From contig CACYQU010000004.1 of assembly GCA_902776615.1 (NCBI GenBank), forward strand, positions 1,139 to 65,138: 64,000 nucleotides of DNA, read 5' to 3'. Shown in pieces: positions 1 through 63,759 of this stretch. Positions within the stretch are counted from its first letter, which is position 1; each line of letters starts with the position of its first letter. The position numbers and the translations under genes were made by a program. Source of the stretch: an uncultured bacterium (lineage in GTDB: Bacteria; Verrucomicrobiota; Kiritimatiellia; RFP12; UBA1067). Below the pieces are notes generated by a model. It was not told the origin of the DNA. It saw only the letters and a list, made by a program, of their open reading frames with translations, and searched no databases.

Positions 1-2253
1 GTCGCGCTCGGAATCGCGGTGATGGTAAAGGAGATGGATTGTGTTGACGACGATTCGCCAAGCGATGCATCCGGCACAAACGGCATATCGGCGCAAAACG
101 GAGCGGCAGGCGACGACGGTGAAGAAGGAAACAGCTTCATCACCGTTCCCATGCAGCCTAAGTTCGACGCCTTCGTTTCTGGTTCGCGCGCCAGCCTATC
201 AATAGAAGTCGACGCCTACTATGGCGACATAGGATTGCCCGCATGTTCGATTCAGGACGATCGCATCGTATGGCTCGAAGATCCAGACGATCCGCTCGTG
301 CGACTGGTGCGCAGCATGAAGGCCGAGAAAGACGCCTTGAAGCTTCTTGAGCGCTACGGGTTTGAACGGGGCTACCGCGAAGGAGACCTGAAACTGTATG
401 TTACCGATTCGCAAAAAGTGCTCAACTTCCTTGGCGCGGGGCTGCCGTTCCTGAGGCGGAAAGGATGGAGGGTAGAGCTATCCGAGCGTCTGATGGCCCT
501 TACCGACACAATGCCCTCGGTCGTGCCTGTCGTCGAGATACGCGACGCCGCAAACGGCGCGTTCGAAGTGAAGTACACATTCGATGCGATGGGTGACGAG
601 GTTTCGCCTGTTGAAATACAGGCCGCACTGAACAGAGGCGACGGCTACATCCTAAAGGACGGCCACGTAACCCTTCTGGACAACTCCGCGATCGAGACCA
701 TGCACGATGTCTTCCGCGACTGCGCAACCGCAGGCAGCGGCACGTCGGACGGCTGGTTCCGCGTGGACGGCGTTCACGCCCCATACGTAAAAGCGTCGCT
801 CGACCTGCTGGACTCCATCGACCTCGACGACACGGCCGCCTCCAACTGGCGCGAAACCGCCGCAGCGCGGAACCGTGAAGGCAAGGCGAAGTTCGAGCCC
901 GTTGCGCTTGGCAGGCTCGAAGGCGTGCTGAGGCCGTACCAGAAGGAGGGCGTGTATTGGATGCGCTTTCTCGAAAACACCGGTCTGTGCGGACTGCTTG
1001 CCGACGAAATGGGGCTTGGCAAAACCCTTCAGACCCTGGCGTGGCTTTCGCTGCCACGCGCGGACGGATGCAACCTGCCGGCCATGATAGTGTGTCCTAC
1101 TTCGCTCGTCAGGAACTGGGAAGCGGAAGCGCGAAAGTTCACGCCGTGGATGAAAACGCTCGTTGTGTCAGGACCGGATCGCGCACGCGATTTCGGCCGG
1201 ATTCCTTCCGCAAACATCGTAATCACTTCCTACGCCCTTCTGCAGCGCGACTTTGAAGACGCATACTTGGGCCGGGAGTTCTCGGCTCTTGTGCTCGACG
1301 AAGCCCAGCACATAAAAAACCGGCGCACGCGGAATGCGAAAGCCGCGAAAAACCTTTCCGCCCGGCAGAGGCTTGTGCTTACAGGCACTCCCATCGAGAA
1401 CTCCGTGGCGGACGTATGGTCGATATTCGACTTTCTGATGCCGCGATACCTCGGCGACTATGAAATGTTCAAAGCCAGCTACGAAACGCCGATCGACGAG
1501 GGCGGGTCTGAAGGAGAGGCGGCGCAAATGAAGCTTAAGCGGAAGCTTCATCCGTTCATTCTGCGCCGCCTCAAAAAGTCCGTGGCAAAAGACCTGCCGG
1601 ACAAACTGGTGAAAGTCTCCTACTGTCCGATGCCCGAAGAGACGCAGCGCGAATACAACGCGACGCTCCAGAAAGAACGGCGCGGCGCGAAGACAAAGTT
1701 TGAAATGCTCGCCCTTCTCATGAAGTTGCGGCAGATCGCAAGCCGAGGCAAAGTCGAGGCGTTCCTTGATGTCGTTGACGAGGCGATCGGCGGCGGACAC
1801 CGCATGCTCGTGTTTTCGCAGTTCGTCAAACAGCTCGCCGTTCTGCGCGAAGAGCTCGACAACCTCGGCATCAAATACTGCTATCTCGACGGCTCGACAA
1901 AAGACCGCCTTGGCGAATGCGAACGGTTCAACCGCAATCCAAACATACCGATCTTCCTGATTTCGCTGATGGCTGGCGGCACGGGTTTGAACCTTACCGG
2001 CGCAGACATGGTCATCCACTACGATCCGTGGTGGAATCCTGCCGTGGAGGACCAAGCCACGGACCGTGCGCACAGAATCGGACAAAAGAAGAAGGTCTAC
2101 GTCGTCAAACTTATAGCCTCCGACTCGGTGGAGGAGAAGGTTCTTACGCTTCAACGCCGCAAACAAGCACTAATCGCAGCAACCGTCTCTACGACAGATG
2201 CTGCGATAGCGGAAAAACTGACGACCGAAGACCTCGCCGAAATCCTTTCCTGA
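1..2253 (+). CDS. SNF2/RapA-like DEAD/H-box helicase. The ORF is open to the left window edge and may be truncated at the 5' end.
   Basis: Motif I LLADEMGLGKTLQTLAW and motif II VLDEAQHIKN are present. The HelicC block reads LISLMAGGTGLNLTGADMVIHYDPWWNPAVEDQATDRAHRIGQKK. There is no in-frame stop between nt 1 and the first ATG at 19. Confidence 0.85.
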   Translation, partial: VALGIAVMVKEMDCVDDDSPSDASGTNGISAQNGAAGDDGEEGNSFITVPMQPKFDAFVSGSRASLSIEVDAYYGDIGLPACSIQDDRIVWLEDPDDPLVRLVRSMKAEKDALKLLERYGFERGYREGDLKLYVTDSQKVLNFLGAGLPFLRRKGWRVELSERLMALTDTMPSVVPVVEIRDAANGAFEVKYTFDAMGDEVSPVEIQAALNRGDGYILKDGHVTLLDNSAIETMHDVFRDCATAGSGTSDGWFRVDGVHAPYVKASLDLLDSIDLDDTAASNWRETAAARNREGKAKFEPVALGRLEGVLRPYQKEGVYWMRFLENTGLCGLLADEMGLGKTLQTLAWLSLPRADGCNLPAMIVCPTSLVRNWEAEARKFTPWMKTLVVSGPDRARDFGRIPSANIVITSYALLQRDFEDAYLGREFSALVLDEAQHIKNRRTRNAKAAKNLSARQRLVLTGTPIENSVADVWSIFDFLMPRYLGDYEMFKASYETPIDEGGSEGEAAQMKLKRKLHPFILRRLKKSVAKDLPDKLVKVSYCPMPEETQREYNATLQKERRGAKTKFEMLALLMKLRQIASRGKVEAFLDVVDEAIGGGHRMLVFSQFVKQLAVLREELDNLGIKYCYLDGSTKDRLGECERFNRNPNIPIFLISLMAGGTGLNLTGADMVIHYDPWWNPAVEDQATDRAHRIGQKKKVYVVKLIASDSVEEKVLTLQRRKQALIAATVSTTDAAIAEKLTTEDLAEILS

Positions 2254-6107: not shown

Positions 6108-6111
6108 GGAA

Positions 6112-6122
6112 AAATAGTCTGT
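6112..6122 (-). promoter_or_regulatory. -10-like box TTATTATAC lying 13 nt upstream of the helicase ATG.
   Basis: The minus strand reads GGTTATTATACagactatttttccATG. Confidence 0.3.
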
Positions 6123-6133
6123 ATAATAACCAC

Positions 6134-6172
6134 AGGCCGGGGACGCAGGGTTCGACGACCCTCGGCCCCGGC
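6134..6172 (-). terminator. GC-rich nested hairpin downstream of rpsI, a putative intrinsic terminator. It has an 8-bp outer stem GGCCGGGG/CCCCGGCC enclosing a 5-bp AGGGT/ACCCT hairpin.
   Basis: The hairpin was read directly from the sequence, 20 nt after the rpsI stop. It is followed on the minus strand by TGTGGTTATTATAC, which is only weakly U-rich. Confidence 0.35.
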
Positions 6173-6191
6173 CGGTGTTGCCTCTTTGGCA

Positions 6192-7414: not shown

Positions 7415-7427
7415 GTAGTATATCATA
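7415..7427 (-). promoter_or_regulatory. Extended -10 TGATATACT, about 20 nt upstream of the mature 5' end of tRNA-Ser.
   Basis: The minus strand reads GGATATGATATACTACACCCTG. The same box occurs upstream of tRNA-Val and rpoB. Confidence 0.45.
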
Positions 7428-12294: not shown

Positions 12295-12935
12295 ACTCTT
12301 ATCTCCTCTGGTTTGTCTACTGTTCTGTCTGCCATGGCCAGTTCTTCGGGGGTTCCATAGCCCCACGACGCTCCGACCGATTCAATTCCGTTTTCCTTTG
12401 CCGCGGCAAAGTCGCTCGACGTATCGCCGACGATTGCGCACTCTTCGGGACGAGCCCCGGTTTCGCGCATGATCCGCGCCAGCAGCGCGCCCTTGCGCAG
12501 CTTGCCGATCGCAGGATCGTCCTTGTACATGTCGCCCGCGTAAAGGCCGTCGAAAACATCTGTCCATCCGAACTTCGCCGCTATCGCCTTCGCGCCGGCA
12601 TAACGTTTGTTCGTTACGATGTACACCTTCGAGCCAGCGGCTTTTAGGGCGCGCACGCAATCTATCACGCCAGGATATTCGCAGGTTGTGGGGAAACCGT
12701 CCGAATCGTAGTGACTGCCGAAGCGCTCGCGTATTGCACGGCCCAGCGCGTCGGTATAAATATCCGGGAAAAGAGCCTTGGCCATATCCTCGATCGGCGG
12801 GCCGGCCACAAAGCGCTTGTCGAAATCTGGACACGACAGGCCGAGTTCGTTCATGGCCGTCTTCCACGCAAGGCGGATGTCTCCATCGGTGTCTGCAAGA
12901 GTGCCGTCCAGGTCAAAGAACCAAAATCTCTTCAT
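12291..12935 (-). CDS. HAD-superfamily hydrolase, of the phosphoglycolate phosphatase or beta-phosphoglucomutase type.
   Basis: Motif I FFDLDGTLADTD, motif II VTNK, and motif IV IVGDTSSDFAAA. Confidence 0.85.
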   Translation of the reverse strand: MKRFWFFDLDGTLADTDGDIRLAWKTAMNELGLSCPDFDKRFVAGPPIEDMAKALFPDIYTDALGRAIRERFGSHYDSDGFPTTCEYPGVIDCVRALKAAGSKVYIVTNKRYAGAKAIAAKFGWTDVFDGLYAGDMYKDDPAIGKLRKGALLARIMRETGARPEECAIVGDTSSDFAAAKENGIESVGASWGYGTPEELAMADRTVDKPEEIRV

Positions 12936-13645
12936 CTGAGAAGCCCCTCCTCGGCAGCCTTTATGATAGACAGCGCTTCTTCCGTGCTCGTCGCCTCGTC
13001 CAGGACTTCAAGGAACTCCGTCGCATGCGCCATCAGGGCAAGCCGCGCCAGTATATTGAGATGCTGCACATGGTCGGTGGAGCAAACAAGGAAGAAGTGG
13101 CGCGTGCCTTCACCGTTCGGTGCGCCGAAGAACACGGGCCTGTCGCTTCTTCCGTAGGCTACGAACGACTCCTCGAAAAGGTAAGGGTCGTGAAAACGCG
13201 GATGCATGAACGCGGCGCCCTGACCGACCGCGGTGGATGCCGTGTTCTCACGCTCCATAAGCTCTTTGAACAGACCTTCCTGATCATACACGAGCCCAGT
13301 GCGCCCAGCGAGATCGCTCATGTCGCGGACCATCCCCGCCTTTGCCTTCCCTGGCATCGAAAGGCACATTCCGTCAAGGCGAAAGAGATTCGACACTCGC
13401 CATTCTTCATGACGCAGGCGGCGATCTTCATCCAGTATGGCGTTGTGCTGACGACGAATCTCGCGCCCGTTGGAGGCGAGAAGCCTGCGCTGGGCCCATT
13501 CGTCAAGCGCGCGATGTTCAAACCACCAGTCGCCGCCATGCTCCGACGCCTCGACCTCCCCTCTCTGGGCGGCATGCTTCAACTCGTTCATCTCCAGATG
13601 AACGTGTTCCGCGGCCTGTTTGAGATTGAGCGTCGTTCTTGACAT
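12932..13645 (-). CDS. Fusion of an excisionase-type HTH (HTH_17-like) DNA-binding domain to a PTS EIIA-Ntr/fructose-type (EIIA_2) domain.
   Basis: The N-terminus TLNLKQAAEHVHLEMNELKHAAQRGEVEASEHGGDWWFEHRALDEWAQRRL resembles the excisionase/MerR-like HTH. The C-terminus AVGQGAAFMHPRF...HFFLVCSTDHVQHLNILARLA matches EIIA-Ntr, including the phosphorylatable His region. Confidence 0.8.
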   Translation of the reverse strand: MSRTTLNLKQAAEHVHLEMNELKHAAQRGEVEASEHGGDWWFEHRALDEWAQRRLLASNGREIRRQHNAILDEDRRLRHEEWRVSNLFRLDGMCLSMPGKAKAGMVRDMSDLAGRTGLVYDQEGLFKELMERENTASTAVGQGAAFMHPRFHDPYLFEESFVAYGRSDRPVFFGAPNGEGTRHFFLVCSTDHVQHLNILARLALMAHATEFLEVLDEATSTEEALSIIKAAEEGLLR

Positions 13646-13654
13646 AACTGAGGT

Positions 13655-13666
13655 GTATTATACCTT
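13655..13666 (-). promoter_or_regulatory. -10 box GGTATAATA lying 11 nt upstream of the HTH-EIIA ATG, implying a near-leaderless transcript.
   Basis: The minus strand reads AAGGTATAATacacctcagttATG. Confidence 0.45.
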
Positions 13667-18225: not shown

Positions 18226-19449
18226 TTACATCGCCTTCGCCAATGCTGCGCCGAACTCCGAGCATTTCACTTCGGTCGCGCCATCCATCTGGCGGGCGAA
18301 GTCGTAGGTGACGGTCTTGGCGGCGATCACCTTGTCCATCGCGGCAATGATGAGGTCGGCGGCTTCGGTCCAGCCCATGTACCTCAACATCATCTCGCCG
18401 GAAAGGATGAGCGAACCGGGGTTGACCTTGTCCAGCCCGGCGTACTTGGGCGCGGTTCCATGCGTCGCCTCGAATACGGCCACGCCTGTCTGGTAGTTTA
18501 TGTTGGCGCCGGGCGCTATTCCGATTCCGCCGACTGTCGCGGCCAGCGCGTCCGAGACGTAGTCGCCGTTCAGATTCAGCGTAGCTATTACATCGTACTC
18601 GGCAGGACGGGTAAGTATCTGCTGCAGGAACGCATCGCATATGCAGTCCTTCACCGTGATCGTGCGGCCGGTCTTGGGGTTCTTGAATTCGCACCACGGT
18701 CCATCGCCGATCAGGCTCGCCCCGTATTCGCGGCGTGCAAGCGCATAGCCCCAGTCCCTGAATGCGCCCTCGGTGAACTTCTGTATGTTTCCCTTGTGCA
18801 CAAGAGTCACCGACTTGCGGTCGTTGTCGATCGCGTAGTCAAGCGCCGCGCGCACAAGGCGCTCGGTACCCTCAAGGCTGACAGGCTTGATCCCGATCGA
18901 AGCCGTCTTGGGGAATCGTATCTTGCGCACGCCCATTTCGTCCAGAAGGAACTTCTTCACCTTCTCGACTTCGGCGGTTCCGTTCATCCATTCGATTCCG
19001 GCGTAGATGTCTTCCGTATTCTCGCGAAAGATCACCATGTCGGTGAGTTCGGGGCGCTTCACGGGAGAGGGCACCCCCTTGAACCACCGCACTGGACGCA
19101 GACACACGTACAGATCAAGCTCCTGGCGCATGGCTACGTTTATGGATCTTATTCCTCCCCCTACGGGCGTGGTGAGGGGGCCTTTGATGGATACGAGGCA
19201 ATCTCTGCAAGCGTCTAGCGTCGCTTGCGGCAGCCACTCGCCCGTCGCCTTGAAAGCCTTTTCTCCGGCAAGCACTTCCCGCCACTCTATCTTCCGCTTG
19301 CCGCCGTATGCCTTATCTACCGCGGCATTCCAGACCAGCATCGCCGCACGGGTGATGTCAGGTCCAGTGCCGTCGCCCTCGATGAAAGGTATTACCGGAT
19401 TCGCGGGAACGCACAGCCTCCCGCCCTGCAAAGTGATTTTGTCGCTCAT
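18226..19449 (-). CDS. icd: NADP-dependent isocitrate dehydrogenase (prokaryotic homodimeric type).
   Basis: The N-terminus [37 protein letters not shown] matches Icd, and the IDH/IMDH fold runs throughout. At 407 aa. Confidence 0.97.
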
Positions 19450-19455
19450 GTTTGG

Positions 19456-19468
19456 TAATTATACCAAA
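19456..19468 (-). promoter_or_regulatory. Extended -10 TGGTATAAT ending 8 nt before the icd ATG, implying a leaderless mRNA.
   Basis: The minus strand reads TTTTTGGTATAATtaccaaacATG, with no Shine-Dalgarno. Confidence 0.5.
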
Positions 19469-22873: not shown

Positions 22874-23245
22874 TCATACCGCGTATGGACCGAGGAATGC
22901 CTCCTTGAAATTGTAGCCCCCGGCGAAACTCTCGGCTGAATCGCCTTCGTCCCTGCCTATGCGATGCGACTCTGCAAGGTTGAACATCATTTCACCGACG
23001 TCTTCCGTTGATTTGACGCCCCACTCCGCAAGAACCCGGTAAGACAGCGGCCCGAACTGGTCAAGCGTCAGTTCGCGGAATTCGTCGAGAATGTCTTCAC
23101 CCGTCATGTGCTTGTCGCCGTTTTCTCCGCCGAGAAAGCGTATCACATCCATCAGAAGCGCATAGGCGCGCGGATTGTAGCGGTTGTCTTTTGCGATTAT
23201 GTCCGCAAATGAATCGGCATCAAAATCAATCTCTTCCATCGCCAC
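22874..23245 (-). CDS. Small acidic hypothetical protein of 123 aa.
   Basis: It reads MAMEEIDFDADSFADIIAKDNRYNPRAYALLMDVIRFLGG... with coding-like composition. No known motif was recognised. Confidence 0.6.
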   Translation of the reverse strand: MAMEEIDFDADSFADIIAKDNRYNPRAYALLMDVIRFLGGENGDKHMTGEDILDEFRELTLDQFGPLSYRVLAEWGVKSTEDVGEMMFNLAESHRIGRDEGDSAESFAGGYNFKEAFLGPYAV

Positions 23246-26239: not shown

Positions 26240-26278
26240 CGTTTTGCTGTCTTTCGTTTTGCTTGCTTGCAGAAGTGG

Positions 26279-26291
26279 GTATTATACCATA
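26279..26291 (-). promoter_or_regulatory. Extended -10 TGGTATAAT, about 45 nt upstream of iorA.
   Basis: The minus strand reads GAATATGGTATAATACCCAC. Confidence 0.4.
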
Positions 26292-34351: not shown

Positions 34352-34366
34352 ATAGTATATCACATT
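34352..34366 (-). promoter_or_regulatory. Extended -10 TGTGATATACT, about 17 nt upstream of the tRNA-Val 5' end.
   Basis: The minus strand reads AAATGTGATATACTATCATTCACTTTTAC-GGGCTATT. Confidence 0.45.
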
Positions 34367-34631: not shown

Positions 34632-34752
34632 CCCCTTAAGGGTGGCTTTTGTTTACCCTAAGGGTGAGAGCACTTCCCCCTTAGGGTTTCTTTAACTCCC
34701 CCTTAGGGTGAGGTCGCCTCACCCTTAGGGGTTCCGACACTTACCCTTAGGG
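34632..34752. repeat. Array of six CCCTTAGGG-type 9-bp quasi-palindromic boxes (one is CCCTAAGGG, one is CCCTTAAGGG), spaced 22 bp centre to centre and separated by 13-bp unique spacers.
   Basis: Read directly from the sequence, with box centres at about 34637, 34660, 34682, 34704, 34726 and 34748. Confidence 0.7.
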
Positions 34753-34916: not shown

Positions 34917-35609
34917 CTAAGGCAGGGGCGGGGCAGTGAGGCTGAATGTTCTGCCGAGCATTGAATATTTCGCAGGGGCGGCCGTGTTGTAGGGCAAAAA
35001 CTCTATCGGAGCGCCAGCGGCGAAGGCGTTGAATGCGGTGCGGTCTTGCGGAGAATCGTTCACGCCAGGTATGCACGGCACACGGAAGACGAAAGGCACG
35101 CCCGCGCCGCGGAGCCATGCGATATTCTCCATGACTTGCGCAAGGCTCCCGCCCGTCCAGCGAGAGAACGCCGCAGGATCGAGCAGCTTCAAATCCTGAT
35201 AGACGAAGTCCATGAGCGAGACGACGCGCCTGTAGTCGGCGGCGCTCGCCGCGCCGCTCGTTTCGAGCGCAACCGAAACGCCCTTCTCCTTGAGGCGCAC
35301 TGCAAGCGCAGAGACAAAATCGGCCTGCGCGAGCGGTTCGCCGCCGGAAAATGTCACGCCGCCGCCGGACTGCGCCATTATGTCGGCGTTGACGAGCAGC
35401 TCCTCGGCGAGCGCGTCCACGCTCCAGTCGCGTCCGCAGACGACCCTTTCGCCGCTCTGCAGGACCATCGTCTCGATCTCGTGCGACTGGCCTTCGGGGT
35501 TGTGGCACCATGCGCAACGCAGCGGACAGCCCTTGAAGAACACTGTAGTCCGCACGCCCGGTCCGTCGTGCAGGGTGAATTCCCGAACTTCGAACGTTCG
35601 GCCCGTCAA
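34917..35609 (-). CDS. Glycyl-radical-enzyme activating protein (PFL-AE-family radical SAM enzyme). A TTG start at 35609 is assumed, overlapping the GRE stop as TTGA; the longest ORF would run to 35888.
   Basis: Radical-SAM cluster motif GPGVRTTVFFKGCPLRCAWCHNPEG, followed by the PFL-AE-like core. Confidence 0.85.
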   Translation of the reverse strand: MTGRTFEVREFTLHDGPGVRTTVFFKGCPLRCAWCHNPEGQSHEIETMVLQSGERVVCGRDWSVDALAEELLVNADIMAQSGGGVTFSGGEPLAQADFVSALAVRLKEKGVSVALETSGAASAADYRRVVSLMDFVYQDLKLLDPAAFSRWTGGSLAQVMENIAWLRGAGVPFVFRVPCIPGVNDSPQDRTAFNAFAAGAPIEFLPYNTAAPAKYSMLGRTFSLTAPPLP

Positions 35610-37681
35610 GATGCCGCCAGCTCCACACGCTTGATTATCTGGTCTTGGTACGGCTTGTCCAGCTCGATGAAATAGCCGCTCCATCCCCATACCCGAACGA
35701 TCAGATGGCGATGGCGTTCGGGGTGTTTCTGCGCGTCGAGCAGAGTGTCGCGATTGATCGTGTTGATCTGCATTTGGTGTCCGCCGCGGTCGATAAAGAA
35801 CTTTACGAGATGCGCCACCTTCTCTACGCCGTCGGGCATGGCGAACGCGGAATCGTGTATTTCGATCGTAAGAGGGCCGCCGTTGCACACCGGACCGAGA
35901 TTCGGCTCGGTGAAAGACCGGACGACCGAGATCGGGCCTTTCACGGGCACATCAAGCGACGGCGCGTAGTTCGCCGAGAACGGTTCGCCAGAGAGACGCC
36001 CGTCGGCGGATGCAGGCACATCCCGCGTGTGCCATATGTAATACATCGCACTACCCGTTCCGGGACGGAATATCCCGCCGCGATCGTTGCGGCGTCCGTC
36101 GAAGGCGTGGCCCCAGAAATCAATGAGCCACTTGGCGATTTCGTCCGCGCGCGGATCGGCGTTGCCCATCTTCGGCGCAGCCTTGGCGGCGGCACGGATG
36201 TCGTCCCGTCCGGCGAAGTCGGTGTCGAGAAGTTTGACAAGCTCTGCGAGAGTAAGAAGGCGCTTCTCGAACACCAACTCGCGTACTGATGCCAGCGAAT
36301 CGACGGCGACAGCGATTCCGGTTCCGTGGATTCCGAAGTTGTTGTATTTCGCGCCCTTCGAGATGTCGCGGGCCTTTTCTATGCAACCGGTGGAGATCAC
36401 CGATACGAATGGTCCCGGCAGAATCTCTACGTGGGAATATTTCCCGACAAGCGCGTCCGCGCGGCGCTGGACTTCGGCCTTGAACTCAGCCTTCACATCC
36501 TCGAAAGAGACGCCTTCCGCCGGAGCGAGGCGCCTCAGCGACGCGTCCAGCGCGCCGACGAAACTGACGGCGTCGATGTTGTTTATGTCCATTCCGCAAC
36601 CAGGCACGAGGAATTCCCAGCACGCGGCCACGGAATAGTCGCGCGCGTCCTCCGTCGCGTAGCCCCAGCGTTCTAGCGCGGGAATGACTACATCGTCGTT
36701 CGCATACTGCGGAAAGCCCAGCCCCTTCGCCGTAAGTTCGGTGCCAAGTTCGTATATTTCGATTGGCGTGGACTTGTCGACGCGAAGGTTGATCTTGGGA
36801 TCGACAAGCTTCAGTTCTCCGCACGCCTTGAGGCACAGGCGCGAGAGGTCGTTGAAAGCGGGCGCGCCGTCACGCGTAACGCCGCCAAGCATGACCGACT
36901 GTCCGTTGTCGCCCTGCTGAACGCCGATGTAAAGGTCGCTGTCGCGGTTGCAGGCGATGAAAAACTCTTCGAGCTCTTCAAGCGCGCCGTCCGCGGTGAG
37001 CCGTCCGGCGTCGAGGTCGGCCTTGTAATAGGGATAAAGGTACTGGTCGATGCGTCCGAGACCGCAGTGATACTCCCCTTCGCACCACATCGCATAGTGG
37101 AGAATCCTCAGCGACTGCAGCGCTTCGTGGAAGGTCCGCGCGCCTTTGAGCGGCACGTGCGCGAGCGTCGCGGCAATCTCGCAAAACCCGCGCGCCTCGG
37201 CCGCCTTGCGATAGCGCTCCGCAAGATCGAGCACGGCGCGAACCGAGAGCGCCGCGTTTTCTAGAAACTCCACGCCCTCGGCGTCGCCTTCGGCGCGACA
37301 CTTCCCAAGGCGCGCCGATATTTCGTCGAGCCGCGCGCCGAGTCCGTCGCGAATCGTCGGGCCGAAATCGGCCGTCAGGTTGAAGACGACCCCCTTCTCG
37401 CCAAACGCGGTTCCGGACGCGCGTCGCGCGTCCATCTCGGCATCGGTATGGAGATCGGGAATCTGGCGGACGGTCCGGAGGAACGCCAGGCGTTCGCCGT
37501 CCATGAACTCAGGGCGCTCCTCACGCAGCATTTCCTCAAGTCCAACACGCGCACGCACGACATCGCCTGTACCTTCGGCGACGAAACGCGCCAACAGCGG
37601 TTTCCAGTCCACATCGCGGCGGAACTTCGCCTGTTCGCGATCGAATGTTCTGTCAAGGAGGGACTTAATCCTCTCGGTCAT
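35606..37681 (-). CDS. Glycyl-radical enzyme of the PFL superfamily, compact at about 692 aa and of unknown substrate specificity.
   Basis: The C-terminal Gly-radical motif region is IVRVWGWSGYFIELDK, about 25 aa from the C-terminus. The mid-protein Cys-loop region is RDYSVAACWEFLVPGCGM. The PFL-like N-terminal helical and barrel regions are present, and the cognate activase is coupled immediately downstream. Confidence 0.88.
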   Translation of the reverse strand: MTERIKSLLDRTFDREQAKFRRDVDWKPLLARFVAEGTGDVVRARVGLEEMLREERPEFMDGERLAFLRTVRQIPDLHTDAEMDARRASGTAFGEKGVVFNLTADFGPTIRDGLGARLDEISARLGKCRAEGDAEGVEFLENAALSVRAVLDLAERYRKAAEARGFCEIAATLAHVPLKGARTFHEALQSLRILHYAMWCEGEYHCGLGRIDQYLYPYYKADLDAGRLTADGALEELEEFFIACNRDSDLYIGVQQGDNGQSVMLGGVTRDGAPAFNDLSRLCLKACGELKLVDPKINLRVDKSTPIEIYELGTELTAKGLGFPQYANDDVVIPALERWGYATEDARDYSVAACWEFLVPGCGMDINNIDAVSFVGALDASLRRLAPAEGVSFEDVKAEFKAEVQRRADALVGKYSHVEILPGPFVSVISTGCIEKARDISKGAKYNNFGIHGTGIAVAVDSLASVRELVFEKRLLTLAELVKLLDTDFAGRDDIRAAAKAAPKMGNADPRADEIAKWLIDFWGHAFDGRRNDRGGIFRPGTGSAMYYIWHTRDVPASADGRLSGEPFSANYAPSLDVPVKGPISVVRSFTEPNLGPVCNGGPLTIEIHDSAFAMPDGVEKVAHLVKFFIDRGGHQMQINTINRDTLLDAQKHPERHRHLIVRVWGWSGYFIELDKPYQDQIIKRVELAAS

Positions 37682-37717
37682 CTCGCACCAACCTTTCTCT
37701 AATCGCAACCGCCAACC

Positions 37718-37787
37718 ACTAACAACTAACAACTAACCACTAACGACTAACAACTAACCGCTAACCACTAACAACTAACCACTAATC
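37718..37787. repeat. Heptanucleotide microsatellite: ten tandem CTAACNN/ACTAACN units (GTTAGNN on the coding strand). It spans the MFS stop codon and the MFS-GRE intergenic region.
   Basis: Read directly from the sequence: actaaca actaaca actaacc actaacg actaaca actaacc gctaacc actaaca actaacc actaatc. Confidence 0.75.
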
Positions 37788-39145
37788 CCCAGTCTCGCCT
37801 CGATATCCTCAATCGTACCGCCCTTGGTCTCAGGCATGAAGAATACGGCCCAAACAAGCTGAACGGCCATCATGAACGCGAAGAACGCGAACGCCCACGT
37901 ACCTGCGCTCTCGGCCACGACAGGGAATGCCCATGAAATCACCGTGCACATGAACCAGTGGGTGAAGCAACCGAGGGCCTGTCCCTTCGCCCTTACGACA
38001 TTCGGGAATACTTCGGAGATGTAAACCCATATCACCGCACCGGACGATACCGCGAAGAACGCTATGAAGCCGAGAATGCCTGCCATGGCGATCGCGGCGT
38101 TCGGATGCGGCAGCGAGAGCTGCCACGCAACGAGCGCATGCATGACGATCATGAGAGAGGCGCCGCAGATGATGAGAGCGCGGCGTCCGAACCGGTCGAT
38201 GAAGAAGAACGCGAGAATCGTGAACGTGAGGTTCACCACGCCGACGCCTATCGTGCCCGCGAGCGCGGCGAGTTCGCTTCCCTCGCCGAAGATGAGCTGG
38301 AAGATGCGCGGCGCATAGTAGTTGATGGCGTTTATGCCCGACACCTGATTGAAGAACGCTATCAAAAACGCCAGCATGATCGGCTTGGCGTAGCGCCGCT
38401 GGAAGAGCGCGACCTTCACGCCATTGGCTGCGGCGCGCAGGGATTCCGCAATCTCGGCAAGGGTCTTCTCGATTTCGGGATAGCCGATGCGCTCAAGAAC
38501 GCCGCGCGCGGCGTTCGCGCGATTCGCCCTCACAAGCCAGCGCGGAGATTCGGGAATCGTCGCGAGAAGCGCCATGAAAAGCGCAATCGGCACGCACTCC
38601 ATGCCAAGCATCACGCGCCACACAAGCTTGGGGTCGGCATTCGGCATGAACCGCGCCACGAGATAGTTTGAGATGTACGAGACCAGAATGCCGAACACGA
38701 TGTTGAGCTGATTCATCGCCACGAGCCGACCCCTGTATCTGCCGGGCGATACCTCGACAATGTAGAGCGGCACGACAACCGAAACGCCGCCTATAGCGAG
38801 CCCGCCGATGAAGCGGAACCATCCAAGCAAATGCGGCCCGAAAACCGGGCTGTGCGGAGTGAACGCGCAGCCCACTGCGGAGACGAGGAAGAGAACCGCC
38901 ATCAGCCACAGCGTCGGTTTGCGTCCCCACTTGTCGGACGGCGCGCCGGCGGTGAAAACGCCGATCACGGTTCCGATAAGCGCACCGGAGACGATAAGTC
39001 CGTGCCAAAACGCCGAAAGCGAAAACTCCGACTGGATGGCTTTTTCGCATCCGGAGATGACCCCCGAATCGAAACCGAAGAGGAATCCGCCCAAAGCGGC
39101 TACAACAACTATGTAAAAAAGAGACTTGTTCATTCGCTTAACCAA
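37775..39145 (-). CDS. MFS sugar porter (sugar:H+ symporter family), 12 transmembrane segments.
   Basis: Motifs GFLFGFDSGVISG, DKWGRKPT (the GRK motif) and IPESPRWL (the PESPR motif). At 456 aa. Confidence 0.9.
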   Translation of the reverse strand: MVKRMNKSLFYIVVVAALGGFLFGFDSGVISGCEKAIQSEFSLSAFWHGLIVSGALIGTVIGVFTAGAPSDKWGRKPTLWLMAVLFLVSAVGCAFTPHSPVFGPHLLGWFRFIGGLAIGGVSVVVPLYIVEVSPGRYRGRLVAMNQLNIVFGILVSYISNYLVARFMPNADPKLVWRVMLGMECVPIALFMALLATIPESPRWLVRANRANAARGVLERIGYPEIEKTLAEIAESLRAAANGVKVALFQRRYAKPIMLAFLIAFFNQVSGINAINYYAPRIFQLIFGEGSELAALAGTIGVGVVNLTFTILAFFFIDRFGRRALIICGASLMIVMHALVAWQLSLPHPNAAIAMAGILGFIAFFAVSSGAVIWVYISEVFPNVVRAKGQALGCFTHWFMCTVISWAFPVVAESAGTWAFAFFAFMMAVQLVWAVFFMPETKGGTIEDIEARLGISG

Positions 39146-39191
39146 ACATCATAGCATTTTCCGGGCGGATATTGCGTATCTCCGTATTTGA

Positions 39192-42603: not shown

Positions 42604-42616
42604 ATATTATACCATA
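42604..42616 (-). promoter_or_regulatory. Extended -10 TGGTATAAT, about 30 nt upstream of the LamG-protein ATG and followed by a ribosome-binding site AAGGAAGGA.
   Basis: The minus strand reads TTTATGGTATAATATAGGCACAAAGGAAGGAACTGCCAAAATG. Confidence 0.45.
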
Positions 42617-55566: not shown

Positions 55567-55579
55567 TAGTATATCATAT
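55567..55579 (-). promoter_or_regulatory. Extended -10 TGATATACT, about 115 nt upstream of rpoB.
   Basis: The minus strand reads AAATATGATATACTATCCATTC. Confidence 0.4.
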
Positions 55580-59995: not shown

Positions 59996-60008
59996 ATATT
60001 ATACCACA
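59996..60008 (-). promoter_or_regulatory. Extended -10 TGGTATAAT, about 25 nt upstream of the XRE-cupin ATG.
   Basis: The minus strand reads ATTTGTGGTATAATATTCCAAC. Confidence 0.4.
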
Positions 60009-63740: not shown

Positions 63741-63746
63741 GGTGGT

Positions 63747-63759
63747 TTATTATACCATA
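63747..63759 (-). promoter_or_regulatory. Extended -10 TGGTATAAT ending 8 nt before the asd ATG, implying a leaderless mRNA.
   Basis: The minus strand reads GAAATATGGTATAATaaaccaccATG, the same geometry as at icd. Confidence 0.5.

Follow-up and report, generated by a model that had tools for sequence, protein, structure and literature searches.

The DNA analysed here is a 64-kb stretch from an uncultured member of the Kiritimatiellia, called the window below, with a G+C content of 59%. Its minus strand carries icd and asd, which encode an NADP isocitrate dehydrogenase and an aspartate-semialdehyde dehydrogenase respectively (Table 1). At the start of icd, minus-strand positions 19470-19447 read cattttTGGTATAATtaccaaacATG, and at the start of asd positions 63761-63738 read aatatGGTATAATaaaccaccATG; a further minus-strand reading of the asd site, taken with its ATG, is aaatatGGTATAATaaaccaccATG. 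At both genes eight bases separate the A of the ATG from the end of a consensus TATAAT hexamer, which has a TG dinucleotide one base upstream. Neither spacer contains GGAG or AGGA, and the gap between box and ATG is too small to leave room for a Shine-Dalgarno (SD) sequence. The first-pass annotation of this DNA had described an extended -10 element ending 8 nt before the ATG and no SD at icd and asd, and reading the minus strand at both sites confirmed this description.

Table 1. Positions of the genes, boxes and other features of the window that are treated in the text.
Feature	Position	Strand	Remarks
icd, NADP isocitrate dehydrogenase, 407 aa	18226..19449	-	ATG 19449-19447; Pfam Iso_dh 4e-93
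icd extended -10 box TGGTATAAT	19458..19466	-	TG at -15/-14, TATAAT 19463-19458, T-run ahead
icd 8-nt spacer taccaaac	19450..19457	-	no SD; A of ATG is 9th base after hexamer
asd, aspartate-semialdehyde dehydrogenase, 336 aa	62730..63740	-	ATG 63740-63738; Pfam Semialdhyde_dh and dimerisation domain
asd extended -10 box TGGTATAAT	63749..63757	-	TG at -15/-14; ATA ahead, TRTG-type -16 region
asd 8-nt spacer aaaccacc	63741..63748	-	no SD
iorA-like gene box TGGTATAAT	26281..26289	-	41 nt before ATG 26239; leadered comparator
iorA-like gene leader	26240..26280	-	41 nt, A/C-rich
LamG-domain gene box TGGTATAAT	42606..42614	-	27 nt before ATG 42578; SD AAGGAAGGA between; leadered comparator
XRE-cupin gene box TGGTATAAT	59998..60006	-	22 or 28 nt before ATG 59975 or 59969; leadered comparator
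HTH-EIIA gene (12932-13645) box AGGTATAAT	13646..13665	-	no TG; 11-nt spacer to ATG 13645
tRNA-Ser promoter TGATATACT	7417-7425	-
tRNA-Val promoter TGATATACT	34354-34362	-
rpoB-rpoC promoter TGATATACT	55568-55576	-
DEAD-box helicase gene, upstream region	6108-6128	-	ATG 6107
MFS sugar-transporter gene, upstream region	39134-39156	-	ATG 39133
G+C-rich hairpin after rpsI	6108-6191		ccggccgggg...ccccggcc
TATAAT facing rpsI 3' end	6122	opposite
Glycyl-radical enzyme (PFL-like) gene	35606-37732
Tandem heptamer array	37714-37785		AACCACT on plus strand, AGTGGTT/AGTTGTT on minus strand
44-nt direct repeat	34653-34752		2.3 copies, 73% match
Small gene with no Pfam match	22874-23245	-

The 9-mer TGGTATAAT occurs five times in the window, always on the minus strand and always upstream of a gene on that same strand, against 0.04 copies expected from dinucleotide-preserving shuffles; a count of five was reached in 0 of 100 shuffles. 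Loosening the motif to TGNTATAAT yielded no extra sites in the window. The other three copies precede an iorA-like gene, a LamG-domain gene and an XRE-cupin gene, the last with an SD-like GAAAGG. Two other readings of the repeated box were rejected. A duplicated promoter cassette or mobile repeat does not agree with a similarity between sites that extends over only about 16 nt round the box, nor with icd and asd spacers that match at 4 of 8 positions. A regulator binding site was discarded as the main reading, since conservation falls on the bases that sigma-70 recognises and the genes preceded by the box are unrelated.

When every start codon in the window was scanned, only three genes had a -10 hexamer lying 4-11 nt ahead of a genuine 5' end: icd, asd and an HTH-EIIA gene. 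All other hexamer matches 4-11 nt from a start in the window lie inside coding regions. The distance of 11 nt previously given for the HTH-EIIA box is correct, but the sequence there is AGGTATAAT, which lacks the TG, and not TGGTATAAT. The HTH-EIIA gene is a near-leaderless candidate with a predicted leader of about 4 nt. Most genes of the window have an ordinary SD, among them rpsI (TAAGGAGG), rpoC (AAGGAA) and the LamG-domain gene (AAGGAAGGA). These sites agree with a survey in which the Kiritimatiellae are listed as SD users with the anti-SD sequence CCUCCUUU (PMC10783764). Strong SD sites had been claimed for other genes of the window, which holds for rpsI and the LamG-domain gene but not for the iorA-like gene, which has no good SD. 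The leader of the latter is acccacttctgcaagcaagcaaaacgaaagacagcaaaacg, with no recognisable SD, unlike the leaders of the other leadered genes.

Several further features were noted in passing. The DEAD-box helicase gene and the MFS sugar-transporter gene have the -10-like sequences tgtggTTATTAT and TGCTATGAT upstream, followed by 15 and 14 nt respectively, with no SD. Their predicted leaders of about 6-9 nt would be too short for an SD, so these genes may belong to a class with short leaders, intermediate between leaderless and leadered genes. The G+C-rich hairpin that follows rpsI lies directly ahead of the helicase promoter, and the TATAAT facing the rpsI 3' end is either a possible antisense promoter or a chance match. 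The heptamer array, of about ten copies or alternatively a 21-nt unit repeated 3.4 times, adjoins the upstream side of the glycyl-radical enzyme gene. The 44-nt direct repeat is non-coding, has the palindromic core CACCCTTAGGGTGAG and lies upstream of tRNA-Val.

The anatomy of the predicted icd and asd promoters is exactly that of the extended -10 class, TRTGnTATAAT. The TRTG flavour of this class is known from Gram-positive bacteria. A matrix made from 93 non-redundant boxes of the lineage carries information only from about -20 to +4, with the consensus a.TaTGGTATAATAy.C, and zero information at -35. A two-hexamer promoter scan that required a -35 match of at least 4/6 returned nothing at icd or asd, which indicates that no -35 element is present at either gene; the best candidates match the consensus at 2/6 (icd) and 3/6 (asd) positions. 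The blank matrix and the empty scans bear out the earlier statement that no -35-like element is conserved. A broader statement, that the organism relies on extended -10 promoters, applies to the icd and asd class but does not describe the only type present, as the tRNA and rpoB promoters carry a TTGAC -35. The tRNA-Ser, tRNA-Val and rpoB(-rpoC) promoters combine TGATATACT with a -35 element (TTGACG or TTGTGC) at 17-18 bp. This combination appears as a distinct promoter flavour of highly expressed genes, and the rpoB leader is about 120 nt long.

The significance of a box so close to the ATG depends on the ATG being the true start codon, and its possible misplacement, with the real start further downstream, was examined. 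In the open reading frame list, ATG 19449 (icd) and ATG 63740 (asd) are the first possible starts. The 8-nt spacing puts the TAA inside TATAAT in frame with the ATG at both genes, and this stop makes an upstream start impossible. In Asd the Rossmann motif VGLVGVGAVG runs from residue 6, and residues 6-7 align with residues 3-4 of the solved Asd structures 2yv3 and 8juo; solved Asd structures start no more than three residues from the window asd ATG. A start further downstream would cut into the Rossmann fold, since its GxxGxxG strand runs from residue 6 onward. Residue 3 of the window Icd aligns with residue 12 of E. coli Icd; the protein is about nine residues shorter than the E. coli enzyme but has no conserved N-terminal residues to spare. 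An identical Icd protein is called with the window start on 21 public contigs.

The strongest evidence for the predicted start codon is comparative and comes from SD-led asd orthologues. Among 73 other orthologues, the leadered ones place AAGGAG 7-9 nt ahead of the same ATG, from which MK[TQKE]Y.VGLVGVG is read. These relatives validate the start codons and indicate that the lineage uses both initiation modes. That the annotated ATGs are not the true starts, and that the nearness of the box is a coincidence, is therefore highly improbable. An in-frame TTG does occur at codon 7 of icd and codon 8 of asd, but initiation there would delete the conserved KITLQ of Icd or the first strand of the Asd fold. 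The short-spacing orthologues of icd and asd also all start with ATG, as do the other short-spacing genes met as by-catch in the relatives, bar two doubtful exceptions. The ATGs of the window are thus upheld by the in-frame TAA, the alignments with PDB structures and the SD-led orthologues.

The closest icd loci were found in metagenome-assembled genomes (MAGs) among species-representative genomes, at 93-75% identity, from rumen, omasum and faeces. These MAGs are labelled Kiritimatiellae/Kiritimatiellia or, in older usage, Verrucomicrobia/Lentisphaerae. In three close relatives the box stands directly ahead of the icd ATG with a 7-nt spacer: TGGTATAAT-acggggc-ATG in L009, TGATATAAT-atgcggc-ATG in L010 and TGGTATACT-acgcgcc-ATG in L015, the hexamer being TATAAT in the first two and TATACT in the third. 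The spacer between box and ATG is not conserved among the relatives. In L008, L011 and most deeper Kiritimatiellia, which have a longer N-terminus (MAYDKI...), icd is SD-led. The loci L014 and L021 have a TGGTATAAT box 25-31 nt upstream of an SD-led icd with this longer N-terminus. The Icd of the window clade lacks about ten N-terminal residues (MAYDKIKVPAG...) that are found in deeper Kiritimatiellia (L014, L020-L036); this shorter form coincides with the clade that has the promoter right next to the ATG.

A larger set was assembled for asd, comprising the window and 73 orthologues from rumen and gut metagenomes with 87-100% amino-acid and 71-100% nucleotide identity. The box lies 6-11 nt from the ATG in 24 of the 74 sequences (the window and 23 of the 73 others). 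It is found 29-45 nt upstream in another 23, of which 20 have an SD between box and ATG, while 27 have no box and are operon-internal or otherwise arranged. On a neighbour-joining gene tree at least nine changes between the short-spacing and the other states were counted, which is a rough figure; as with all comparative counts across these relatives, the cases are phylogenetically non-independent. Many of the short-spacing asd loci have unrelated upstream sequence. When asd of L107 (tggtataatatgcgccct/ATG) is compared with that of L101 (tggtataatatgcggcc/aatttcaaggagtagcagaaaa/ATG), what separates the two forms appears to be an entire leader, present in one and missing from the other. A third gene that alternates between leadered and leaderless geometry is the small gene without a Pfam match. 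The window copy is either SD-led or internal to an operon, but its orthologues in L095 (~224-245) and L088 (~219-240) have TGGTATACT 8-9 nt before the ATG.

For boxes of the TGNTATAAT type, the spacing to the next credible start was measured in 113 sequences, namely the window and 112 related loci. The distances are bimodal, with one group at 6-12 nt (mode 8-9 nt), another at about 22-48 nt (mode 30 nt) and almost nothing at 13-20 nt. Such bimodality is expected if a gene must have either no leader at all or one that can accommodate an SD. The relatives contain 33 non-identical cases with a short spacing of 6-11 nt. About ten genes beyond icd and asd, and at least nine, have the short geometry as by-catch in the relatives, including a UvrC-like gene, four genes for signal-peptide proteins, an ABC ATPase gene, the orthologue of 22874-23245 and several others; no SD was found in any of these short-spacing by-catch cases. 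A further 20 or so by-catch genes are leadered, so that roughly a third of by-catch boxes are short-spaced, and in the window 2-3 of about 50 genes have the short geometry. The first-pass annotation had assigned translation without a leader to a subset of central-metabolism genes. This restriction is not supported, because the UvrC-like, signal-peptide and ABC ATPase genes, among others, share the geometry in relatives.

The place at which transcription would start decides whether a leader is wholly absent. Both mRNAs had been proposed to begin at the ATG or 1 nt before it, on the assumption of a start about 7 nt after the hexamer. With eight intervening bases, leaders of 2, 1 and 0 nt follow from starts at positions 7, 8 and 9 respectively, so the proposed ends stand for positions 8 and 9 but not for position 7. 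In E. coli the modal start is the seventh base after the -10 element, a purine preceded by a pyrimidine is preferred, and some discriminators shift initiation to position 9 (PMC5730371). A pyrimidine stands just before the ATG in 27 of 33 short-spacing promoters vs 20 of 52 leadered ones (p = 1e-4, the cases being phylogenetically non-independent). A purine is found at +7 in 24 of 34 leadered promoters of the lineage, and the short-spacing promoters are C-rich at +7/+8. These base patterns at -1 and at +7/+8 favour the A of the ATG as the predicted start site. The pyrimidine/purine pattern would fit both the rule of pyrimidine at -1 and purine at +1 for start sites and the shift from position 7 to 9 seen in E. 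coli. A heuristic start prediction, which is a rule of thumb, gave leaders of 0-6 nt, most often 0.

Some bases of the two sites point the other way. The icd spacer (taccAAAc) has purines from +5 to +7 and the asd spacer (aaaccAcc) has one at +6, which makes leaders of 2-3 nt possible. The boxes could then be real promoters from which transcription starts at position 7, giving mRNAs with leaders of 2-3 nt (AC-AUG, ACC-AUG) and no 5'-terminal AUG. Such near-leaderless mRNAs could be translated at a reduced level or be regulated differently. This alternative is considered possible but is not favoured. In its favour, M. tuberculosis has a spacing of 6-8 nt, shorter than the modal 8-9 nt seen here, and D. 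deserti translates mRNAs with very short leaders (PMC4007540). Against it, pyrimidines are enriched at -1/-2 of the ATG and purines depleted at +7/+8 across the short-spacing set, and the E. coli RNA polymerase is able to start at position 9 (PMC5730371). We infer that the icd and asd mRNAs would be leaderless or near-leaderless, with a leader of 0-3 nt. Relative to shuffled sequences, the predicted mRNAs show no reduction in structure over the 45 nt that begin with the ATG.

A more speculative and rather doubtful proposal is that the RNA polymerase of this lineage habitually starts 9-10 nt, and not 7 nt, past the hexamer, guided by a conserved, C-rich A-Y-n-C discriminator. The spacing of 8-9 nt would then produce true 5'-AUG mRNAs, and housekeeping genes would toggle unusually often between leaderless and SD-led forms. 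If both the distant start and the frequent toggling were true, the latter with its nine or more changes at asd, the lineage would be a natural system for leader gain and loss.

The reading that best accounts for these observations, to which a probability of about 0.72 is given, is that icd and asd are transcribed from their own extended -10 promoters into leaderless mRNAs with the start codon at or near the 5' end. Each gene would have a housekeeping-sigma promoter of the TRTGgTATAAT class with no functional -35. The first base transcribed would be the ATG's own A or one lying 1-3 nt ahead of it, and the resulting mRNAs would have neither a 5' leader nor an SD. A ribosome carrying initiator tRNA would recognise the 5'-terminal AUG directly. 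This gut or rumen member of the Kiritimatiellia, within the PVC group, would initiate translation of most genes through an SD and use the leaderless route for a minority of first-in-operon genes. Close relatives would alternate the arrangement of the same gene as an AAGGAG-bearing leader of about 22-30 nt is gained or lost.

The genes upstream of icd and asd lie on the same strand, at intergenic distances of 75 nt and about 80 nt respectively. No significant terminator was found between these genes and the boxes (folding z = -0.36 and 0.14), and a terminator scan gave a single weak hairpin, at icd. Since no convincing terminator precedes either box, read-through transcripts with an SD-less internal icd or asd start may coexist with those from the predicted promoters. 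Taken further, icd and asd could be translated mainly from read-through transcripts begun at the promoters of the upstream genes (a DUF6259 gene and a partial open reading frame at the window edge). The A/U-rich UGGUAUAAU would then be no promoter but an unstructured, S1-type landing site for SD-independent ribosome binding. The lack of a significant terminator and the same-strand neighbours are compatible with this proposal, as is the iorA-like gene of the window, which likewise has no good SD. It is nevertheless unlikely. The conserved positions are those that sigma reads (TG, T-12, A-11 and T-7) and go beyond mere A/U richness, and the same box lies 22-48 nt upstream of SD-led genes, where a role as ribosome site is impossible. 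In addition, orthologue boxes either hold a distance of 6-11 nt or jump to about 30 nt with an SD inserted, a bimodality expected of promoters, and the sequence upstream of many short-spacing asd loci is unrelated.

Transcription of icd and asd from their own promoters into leaderless mRNAs would extend promoter-proximal leaderless organisation, best documented in Actinobacteria, Deinococcus and archaea, to an uncultured gut and rumen PVC lineage that otherwise uses SD. Gene callers built on SD models can misplace starts in metagenome-assembled genomes of this kind, and the sharp consensus of the lineage boxes is usable for predicting their transcription units. A natural series is also provided by asd and icd, as close relatives serve one start codon either without a leader or through an SD-containing leader of about 30 nt. 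Such a series would be useful for studying how modes of translation initiation are interconverted.

The boxes resemble known promoters of the extended -10 (TGn) class, among them the TRTGn -16 type of Gram-positive bacteria, in their TG and TATAAT, in the frequent T-A/G ahead and in having no recognisable -35. They differ in the unusually strong conservation of G at -13 (TGG) and of the first discriminator A (TATAATA-Y-n-C). Within the same window, the tRNA and rpoB promoters differ again in pairing TGATATACT with a TTGAC -35.

The classical single leaderless mRNAs of SD-using bacteria are those of lambda cI, transcribed from PRM, and of Tn1721 tetR. The present case is similar in that an SD-using organism is predicted to translate a few 5'-AUG mRNAs. 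It differs in that chromosomal housekeeping genes are concerned, and in that the arrangement is recurrent and evolutionarily labile across a whole lineage.

The closest comparison is with the leaderless genes of bacteria such as M. tuberculosis and D. deserti, which have a -10 element a few nucleotides upstream, no SD and an AUG start, and which share their genomes with SD-led genes (PMC6028130, PMC4007540). In the 'group C' genomes defined by GeneMarkS-2, a Pribnow box lies about 6-8 nt from the start of first-in-operon genes and SDs are used elsewhere; Actinobacteria and Deinococcus-Thermus often have genomes of this group, Proteobacteria and Firmicutes rarely (PMC6028130). No report of leaderless genes in Kiritimatiellota was found in the literature searched. 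The present organism belongs to the Kiritimatiellia. Its box is the near-perfect extended -10 TGGTATAAT, in contrast to the loose TANNNT of group C, and, with a mode of 8-9 nt, its spacing exceeds by 1-2 nt the 6-8 nt of group C and M. tuberculosis. Genes of this type are apparently a minority here, and individual genes visibly alternate between a leaderless and an SD-led form. With these differences, the predicted pattern agrees with the signature that has been published for leaderless genes in bacteria, and it would occur here in a PVC lineage that uses SD.
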